Shown here: piece by piece, positions 42,701 to 45,700 of the stretch
Layout: every line of letters begins with the position of its first letter
Position numbering within the stretch: position 1 is the first letter of the stretch
DNA from: Escherichia coli
GTDB taxonomy: Bacteria; Pseudomonadota; Gammaproteobacteria; Enterobacterales; Enterobacteriaceae
Direction: 5' to 3' (one strand)
DNA length: 64,000 nucleotides
Assembly (NCBI RefSeq): GCF_045037415.1
Contig: NZ_CP173438.1
Program-made: the position numbers

Positions 42701-45700
42701 AAATGGCTATTTCATGGAACGCAGTAATTTCTTAGTGGCTATTATCAAGCTAATTCTTAGGTCCCTAGCGATTATTCCTGGCTGGTTCGTCAGTTTAGGT
42801 CATGAGATTGTTACATTCCTTTTTATCCTGGAGATATGGGGGAACGCAGGCGACGCTTTTTCATCTACATCCGTTGGTAAATATGGCTTTGGTCACTACG
42901 ACTTAAACCCTCCTCAATCACAGCTACTCGCCGGGCGATATGGCAAACAAACTAATTGAAACATCATCCTGAAAACACCAGCATCAACAAGCCTCTCCAG
43001 ATCGACATCAGGAGTGACCAGTTACAAGCCACAAACCAAGAAACATATTTCATGATGAGAATTATGCTCAGCCTGATGGCGGGTAAACACTTATTTTCAC
43101 CAAGCTCACTGAGTTAGCTTGCAAAGCTTTCTTTGTTTATATTCTAAATAAATTATTTATAAAACATATAGTTAAAAGAAAATCTTTAGTTTTTGAAGAC
43201 CACCGCAAGTGTTCGTCTGGCTTCACATGGCATCTGCCTCTTAGAAAAAGATCGACATATTTTGTGACACGAATTGCAAATCTGGTTTTGTTGTATGGAT
43301 TGCGTGATTTTTGATCTGGTATAACAGGTATAAAGGTGCACCACGATAGTCAATGAAACTGGGCATCTCGCAATCTATGGCAAACATCACTTCAGTTCTT
43401 TCTCATCGGGTGATGAAAACGCACTTCAGTCTGAAAGGAATATGAAAATGAGATCAACAGACACTCTATTTTATGACTCTGGGTAAAATGGATTGAGTAA
43501 GCGATATAGCTTACGAAAATTCAAATCAATTAAACATCAGCAGAGATTTTATACTCAGGTATTTAATCTGGCTCTCTGTTTATTTAAATAATGTGGAAAG
43601 AGATTTTTCACAGGAGACATTATACAAAAAATATAAAATACAGCTACCCGTTGCCAAAGACACTATAAGCCTGGCAAAAAATATTACACAACATAAATGC
43701 TAATTGTTTATGCGGGCTTTGTATTGCTTTCTGTATCCTACAAATGAGTGAAATTTATGAAAAAGGCTAAAATACTTTCTGGCGTATTATTACTGTGCTT
43801 TTCGTCCCCATTAATTTCTCAGGCTGCGACACTGGACGTACGTGGTGGATATCGTAGTGGAAGCCACGCCTATGAGACTCGACTCAAAGTCAGTGAGGGA
43901 TGGCAAAATGGATGGTGGGCAAGCATGGAAAGTAATACCTGGAATACCATTCATGATAATAAAAAGGAAAATGCCGCACTCAATGATGTTCAGGTTGAAG
44001 TTAATTACGCAATTAAACTTGATGATCAATGGACGGTACGCCCGGGAATGTTAACGCATTTTAGCAGCAACGGCACACGTTACGGACCCTACGTAAAACT
44101 GTCCTGGGACGCGACAAAAGATCTTAATTTTGGCATTCGCTATCGTTACGACTGGAAAGCTTACCGACAACAAGACTTATCCGGTGATATGTCTCGTGAT
44201 AACGTTCATCGTTGGGATGGATATGTCACTTACCATATTAATAGTGATTTCACCTTCGCATGGCAAACGACGCTATACAGCAAACAGAACGATTATCGCT
44301 ATGCAAACCATAAGAAATGGGCGACGGAAAATGCATTTGTTCTACAATACCATATGACGCCCGATATTACGCCATACATAGAATATGACTACCTTGACCG
44401 TCAGGGTGTTTACAACGGCAGAGATAATTTATCGGAAAACAGTTATCGCATTGGTGTGTCATTTAAACTGTAGTAGACAGGAGACAGTCACAATGAATAA
44501 AACAATAACGGCGCTTGCTATCATGATGGCTTCATTTGCCGCAAACGCGTCTGTATTACCGGAAACTCCTGTGCCATTTAAAAGTGGTACCGGAGCAATT
44601 GATAACGACACTGTCTACATTGGTTTAGGTAGCGCAGGTACGGCATGGTACAAGCTGGATACACAGGCCAAAGATAAAAAATGGACAGCGTTAGCTGCAT
44701 TCCCTGGTGGACCAAGAGATCAAGCAACCTCGGCATTTATTGATGGTGATCTGTATGTGTTTGGCGGCATTGGCAAAAATAGCAAGGGCTTGACTCAGGT
44801 ATTTAATGACGTACACAAATACAACCCCAAAACCAATAGCTGGGTTAAATTGATGTCGCACGCGCCAATGGGCATGGCGGGCCATGTGACTTTTGTACAC
44901 AACGGCAAAGCTTATGTTACTGGCGGTGTTAACCAGAATATCTTCAATGGCTATTTTGAAGATCTCAACGAGGCTGGAAAAGATTCAACCGCTATAGATA
45001 AAATCAACGCTCACTATTTTGACAAAAAAGCAGAAGATTATTTCTTCAATAAGTTTCTGTTGTCTTTTGATCCCTCAACCCAGCAATGGAGTTACGCTGG
45101 CGAATCTCCCTGGTACGGAACGGCTGGTGCGGCGGTTGTGAATAAAGGTGATAAAACCTGGCTTATTAATGGCGAAGCCAAACCCGGATTGCGAACGGAT
45201 GCCGTATTTGAACTTGATTTCACCGGTGATAATTTAAAATGGAATAGGCTTGCTCCCGTCTCATCACCAGATGGCGTCGCTGGCGGTTTTGCGGGGATAA
45301 GCAATGATTCTCTTATATTTGCCGGAGGGGCCGGATTCAAAGGTTCACGAGAAAATTACCAGAACGGTAAGAACTATGCGCATGAAGGCCTGAAAAAATC
45401 ATATAGCACTGATATTCATCTTTGGCATAACGGGAAATGGGATAAATCGGGTGAATTATCGCAAGGTCGGGCCTACGGAGTATCATTGCCCTGGAATAAT
45501 AGTCTATTGATTATTGGCGGTGAATCTGCAGGCGGCAAAGCGGTGACGGATTCAGTTTTGATCTCTGTGAAGGATAATAAAGTCACAGTACAAAACTAAC
45601 GCTTCAGGGCCCCGGTAAAGGGCCCTGCTATCAATTTGTCATTTCAATTACGCGAAAATTATATGAACGCAATAATATCGCCCAATTATTACTATGTTCT

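Follow-up and report, generated by a model that had tools for sequence, protein, structure and literature searches.

A highly probable NanR operator of the nanCMS promoter in an Escherichia coli genome with a split fimB gene

NanR operators of the Escherichia coli sialoregulon

The operator made of GGTATA repeats and recognised by NanR has been found in three Escherichia coli operons, namely nanATEK-yhcH, yjhBC and nanCMS (PMC8012715), and NanR operators upstream of nanCMS and yjhBC are also described in PMC3658417. A single GGTATA repeat binds NanR poorly, while with two repeats the binding is cooperative, at a KD of ~25 nM (PMC8012715). By genomic SELEX, the spacer between nanC and fimB was identified as a NanR target; in that one study NanR is reported to remain bound at the nanC/fimB site even when Neu5Ac is present (PMC5934670); if so, the simple picture of a repressor that falls off its operator may be incomplete. 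The same spacer is cited as a NanR/NagC control region: in PMC11316696 and PMC5401889, both citing Sohanpal 2004, NanR and NagC are said to act positively on fimB, and PMC11316696 also summarises the Dam link of this control. These sources bear out the preliminary description of the DNA analysed here, in so far as it had the K-12 region couple sialic-acid sensing to fimB.

Earlier publications already cover the site together with its regulator and effector, the structure of the complex, and the ST131 insertion in fimB. The present analysis carries therefore little weight as a discovery; its value lies in annotation, in that it places the very probable nanCMS promoter-operator at 43313-43340 of the E. 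coli genome studied. Positions refer throughout to the window, that is, the whole 64-kb stretch of DNA that was analysed.

Anatomy of the site upstream of nanC

In the window, the 21-mer GGTATAACAGGTATAAAGGTG has a single occurrence, at 43318-43338 of the plus strand. The preliminary description had placed this motif at 43328-43348: the sequence is real and unique in the window, but those coordinates are 10 bases too high and cover just the second half of the 21-mer. It had also put the operator in a divergent intergenic region of 1.45 kb, which agrees with the 1,453 bp that separate the start codon of fimB (minus strand, ending at 42303) from the ATG of nanC (43757). The motif starts 439 bp upstream of the latter and ~1,015 bp upstream of the former.

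According to PMC3658417 and PMC8012715, a NanR operator consists of at least two direct GGTATA repeats set 2-3 nt apart. Here, repeat 1 (43318-43323, plus strand) and repeat 2 (43327-43332, plus strand) are separated by a 3-nt spacer, that is, in a 9-bp register, and a degenerate third repeat, GGTGCA (43335-43340, plus strand; four of six matches), follows 2 nt further on. A Dam site, GATC, directly abuts repeat 1 at 43313-43316. The repeats lie in the promoter region of a sialic-acid operon, 439 bp 5' of nanC, which is followed by nanM and nanS. They belong to a block of 107 bp (43237-43343) that is identical to K-12 MG1655, that is, to the experimentally bound site of the K-12 nanC/fimB spacer, and that holds the GATC sites, a CRP-like site and the NanR operator. 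The core is moreover invariant among the copies compared and its flanks variable, a conservation beyond the neutral expectation. Judged by these sequence-level features, the candidate has everything that characterises a GGTATA-repeat operator of the GntR/FadR-type NanR; the analysis found no sequence evidence against this reading, and 43318-43338 is very probably the NanR operator of the nanCMS promoter. With two perfect hexamers out of three, it would be expected to accommodate at most two high-affinity NanR dimers, as judged from the two-repeat oligonucleotide of PMC8012715.

The GATC that abuts repeat 1 (43313-43316) I take to be the site of Sohanpal 2004 that NanR protects from methylation. 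A second GATC, at 43250-43253 inside AGAAAAAGATCGACATATTTT, falls within the same run of identity with K-12; of the NagC sites that belong to the fimB/nanC control region, it is presumably the proximal one.

The three genes downstream are intact open reading frames on the plus strand. nanC (43757-44473) encodes a KdgM-family outer-membrane channel, the protein being 100% identical to K-12 NanC; nanM (44493-45599) encodes the N-acetylneuraminate epimerase, identical to K-12 at 363 of 369 positions; nanS (45663-46643) encodes a sialate O-acetylesterase of the SASA family, with 316 of 327 positions identical. A truncation of nanS, suggested by the RefSeq label 'incomplete, missing C-terminus' in JJ1887, was considered and rejected: the JJ1887 DNA equals that of the window, where a frame of 326 codons is open and collinear with K-12, and the label is probably an annotation artefact.

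The repeats appear to be embedded in the nanC promoter itself. The stretch TGgTATAAC (43317-43325, plus strand) is the predicted extended -10 element and overlaps the repeats. With a putative transcription start near 43332, the -10 hexamer would occupy -12 to -7 and the TG -15/-14, and the CRP-like site TGTGAcacgaaTTGCA (43263-43278, plus strand), whose centre lies 61.5 nt upstream of 43332, would be a candidate CRP site at -61.5. Repeat 1 would thus overlap the -10 hexamer and repeat 2 would span the start, the three hexamers together covering about -14 to +9 and leaving a leader of ~425 nt up to the nanC ATG (43757). Owing to the poor -35, the operator was not called as a promoter when the intergenic region was scanned with a generic sigma-70 model; the assignment draws instead on the extended -10, on the CRP geometry and on paralogy.

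The site belongs to a set of three paralogous promoter-operator modules, those of nanA, nanX and nanC, in the E. coli sialoregulon. In the mechanism proposed, NanR, a GntR/FadR-type repressor encoded elsewhere in the genome, would bind the direct GGTATA repeats cooperatively as dimers. As the repeats overlap the predicted extended -10 and start, bound NanR is expected to exclude RNA polymerase and keep nanC-nanM-nanS off; NanR is likely to occupy the site in this way in an ST131-type strain too. Neu5Ac would then bind NanR and weaken its hold on the DNA (PMC8012715), whereupon the nanC promoter would fire, probably with the assistance of cAMP-CRP.

Two other aspects of the presumed leader were recorded. 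An open reading frame of 22 codons, MANITSVLSHRVMKTHFSLKGI, spotted by eye, lies within it at 43377-43445. The Rfam scan of the whole window returned no RNA family in the ~425 nt of the nanC leader; elsewhere, it gave a gathering-score match to the SymR antitoxin sRNA at 9097-9173 on the minus strand (83.1 bits).

The split fimB gene and its control region

The preliminary description had further called fimB broken, and rightly so; save for the coordinates, all of its points that could be checked are borne out. K-12 fimB aligns to the window in two pieces, both on the minus strand, with its first 200 nt at 42303-42104 (5' fragment, 42104-42303) and the remainder at 40218-39811 (3' fragment, 39811-40218). 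After nucleotide 200 the gene is split by an ISL3-family insertion sequence of 1,885 bp (40219-42103, plus strand), bounded by imperfect terminal inverted repeats of 23 bp (40219-40241 and 42081-42103) and by TATAT target duplications (40214-40218 and 42104-42108). The element holds a DUF1706/ClbS-like gene (40318-40836) and an ISL3 transposase gene with zinc-ribbon, HTH and DDE domains (40855-42075). It matches the ISL3-family insertion that Totsika et al. 2011 (PMC3203889) described in fimB of the ST131 strain EC958 and of Nissle 1917. Once the two 5-bp repeats are added, the 1,885 bp of the element come to the published length of 1,895 bp, and at the level of the published description no difference was detected between the EC958 insertion and the one in the window.

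From just inside the 3' end of the insertion sequence to the nanC start (42076-43757), the window is 100% identical to many ST131 / O25b:H4 genomes, for example JJ1887, and the annotation of these relatives puts the interval between fimB and nanC. The ST131-type intergenic sequence is present at an identity of at least 99% in 665 genomes.

Two observations concern the neighbourhood. The invertible switch fimS (38373-38693) is inverted with respect to the otherwise identical JJ1887 assembly and collinear with MG1655; its best promoter-like match, TTGAGA-17-TATGAT on the plus strand at 38642-38670, faces away from fimA, which lies on the minus strand, and the switch is accordingly in the phase-OFF orientation. 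On the other side, an insertion of 2,271 bp (49085-51355), absent from JJ1887, lies inside a frameshifted transposase gene of an IS3-like element (ISEc52 family). With an Rfam match to group II intron domain V/VI at 51269-51355 (64.9 bits) and a reverse-transcriptase/maturase frame split into ORFs at 49741-50385 and 50357-51265, it is a group II intron that invaded an insertion sequence.

In K-12, the NanR-DNA complex stimulates, together with NagC and IHF, the distant and divergent fimB promoter as well, so that sialic acid leads to less FimB and less off-to-on switching of type 1 fimbriae. Such long-range control requires an intact fimB, and here fimB is split. The K-12 output, a fall in FimB in response to sialic acid, can thus not be exerted through FimB in the ST131-type sequence: in the genome studied, the circuit leading from sialic acid to FimB-driven fimbrial switching cannot work by that route. 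The sialic-acid control module itself is fully preserved in a pandemic uropathogenic lineage. No FimB would be produced, and nanCMS would be left as the productive target of the operator.

Whether nanCMS is the only target, as the preliminary description had it, is a separate matter. That no FimB can be made stands; exclusivity is a sensible reading rather than an observation, since the promoters of fimB persist along with its initial 200 nt, and some NanR-dependent transcription toward the insertion sequence may still occur. It could even be argued that the site is still mainly a long-range activator of the fimB promoter, with NanR/NagC-dependent transcription continuing across the 5' fragment into the insertion sequence, in antisense to both genes of the latter, and perhaps further toward the 3' fragment of fimB and fimE; in that case fim switching or the activity of the element would remain under the influence of sialic acid. 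The intact fimB promoters and first 200 nt, a control block (43237-43343) that is whole and identical to K-12, and the fact that the genes of the insertion sequence are opposite in strand to fimB agree with it. Against it, functional FimB cannot be made, and the block is kept whatever the status of fimB, because the nanC promoter lies within it, so that its conservation says nothing about a remaining role on the fimB side; this alternative is unlikely.

A stronger form of the idea is that the orphaned NanR/NagC activating region might drive sialic-acid-responsive transcription on the minus strand, starting at the intact fimB promoters, into the ISL3 element in antisense to its transposase and DUF1706 genes and toward fimE, in which case ST131 clade C would keep a rewired link from host sialic acid to fim switching or to IS activity. 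The sequence analysis provides no positive support for residual transcription into the insertion sequence, and I consider this form very unlikely.

The regulator and the conservation of the operator

The reading of 43318-43338 as the NanR operator of nanCMS presupposes a cognate repressor. The nanR gene is absent from the 64-kb window, and in ST131 strains a further nan cluster, which encodes a NanR paralogue, is often present (PMC10088187); the operator might accordingly be intact and yet idle, NanR being missing or altered, or the NanR-like regulator of the nan-9 cluster having taken over. To this it can be objected that nanR is found in 5,409 of 5,426 complete E. coli genomes (99.7%), which, set against the 665 genomes with the ST131-type intergenic sequence, means that nearly all of the 665 must have nanR. 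Furthermore, the ST131 strain IMT12185 carries nanRATEK and nanCMS and requires nanRATEK for growth on Neu5Ac, and the nan-9 proteins are only 45-64% similar to their sialoregulon counterparts (PMC10088187). Within the 64-kb window no nan-9 cluster with a NanR paralogue is present, the flank being made of yjhP-sgc-yjhGHI genes. An idle operator is highly improbable, and nanR is very probably present in the genome studied, outside the window.

The operator is also widely conserved. With a 71-bp query that has the operator at its centre, matches were obtained in 5,099 of the 5,426 complete E. coli genomes (~94%), nearly always at an identity of at least 95%. When six diverse nanC alleles are aligned with nanX and nanA of K-12, the core of 25 nt, GATCTGGTATAACAGGTATAAAGGT, is invariant, with varying flanks, and repeat 1 is invariant across all aligned nanC, nanX and nanA copies.

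Beyond E. coli, a scan with one genome per species for exact matches to the 20-mer GGTATAACAGGTATAAAGGT returned 90 loci in other genomes. Eighty-seven of them lie between nanR and nanA, ~58 nt before the nanA start; the 20-mer is hence the nanR-nanA operator of ~87 other Enterobacterales species, in genera that include Citrobacter, Enterobacter, Kluyvera, Rahnella, Buttiauxella and Hafnia, and also in Salmonella arizonae. The remaining three are E. coli-type nanC or nanX copies. Two of them, the nanC/fimB and nanX operator loci L010 and L076, sit on contigs that public assemblies assign to unrelated organisms, namely an uncultured Bacteroides MAG and Methylobacterium mesophilicum, and probably represent contamination with E. 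coli DNA.

In the 90 loci, the third hexamer is GGTATA in 45, GGTATG in 21 and GGTACA in 16, with others in the rest, a variability by which a degenerate third repeat is normal in this operator family. TCTGGTATAAC is kept in 83 of the 90, and GATC stands at the position abutting repeat 1 in 49.

The weakest alternative is that of an AT-rich promoter element, of the TATAAC / TATAAA -10-like kind, whose likeness to a NanR box is fortuitous and which plays no part in repression. In its favour, both GGTATA hexamers hold -10-like TATAA sequences, and the number of single GGTATA hexamers observed in the window, 17, is no more than chance predicts (17.7). It is nevertheless hardly credible, given that the exact pattern GGTATA-N3-GGTATA is absent from all 100 dinucleotide-preserving shuffles of the window, that three sialic-acid operons under separate regulation and ~87 nanA promoters of other species have the 25-nt core in identical form, that NanR binding to the nanC/fimB spacer has been published (PMC5934670, PMC8012715), and that for K-12 both the in vitro binding of NanR and the dependence of nanC regulation on nanR have been reported. 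With lone hexamers at the chance rate, the signal is the tandem arrangement; the 21-mer GGTATAACAGGTATAAAGGTG likewise found no match with up to three mismatches in 100 such shuffles, and chance as the source of the tandem motif is ruled out by them.

Likeness to the K-12 sites

Set beside its K-12 counterpart, the nanC-fimB operator O_NR (Sohanpal et al. 2004; Kalivoda et al. 2013), the site has the same two GGTATA hexamers, the same GGTGCA and the same abutting GATC, and the upstream block with GATC and the CRP-like site is identical as well. The distance to nanC differs from K-12 by only 2 nt of leader indels, with an intergenic length of 1,453 bp in the window versus 1,455 bp in K-12. As a whole, the intergenic region is 98% identical to MG1655, with 55 differing positions within 42304-43756 (57 over the aligned 42250-43800, two of which, 42250 and 43800, fall outside that interval). 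None of the differences falls in 43237-43343, while nearby bins of 100 bp contain up to 10. Ten substitutions cluster at 43100-43199, where the DNA between fimB and nanC is AT-rich and where, approximately, I assume the distal NagC and IHF sites to lie.

Likewise, the (GGTATA)3 operators of K-12 nanATEK-yhcH and nanXY (yjhBC), described by Kalivoda 2003 and Horne et al. 2021 (PMC8012715), have GATCTGGTATAACAGGTATAAAGGT exactly in common with the nanC copy, with the same 9-bp and 8-bp register of the hexamers. The first 20 nt of the motif match the K-12 nanA and nanX operators exactly. Both the nanA and the nanX (yjhB) promoters of K-12 read GATCTGGTATAACAGGTATAAAGGTATA, from which the nanC copy departs only in the third hexamer, within its last three bases (GGTGCA where the other two have GGTATA). 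From operator to ATG, nanC has ~439 bp and nanX ~433 bp, compared with 58 bp in the case of nanA.

The kinship of nanC and nanX extends beyond the operator. Their upstream regions (43242-43521 of the window and K-12 L004 1551-1838) are paralogous over ~295 bp, with 64% identity and an E value of 2e-23, and the paralogous stretch spans the CRP-like site, the NanR operator and ~190 nt of the leader; TTTGTGACA is common to both. Together with the position of the two operators, each ~435 bp from its own start codon, this likeness suggests that the sialoregulon may have expanded by duplication of a cassette made of promoter, operator and leader.
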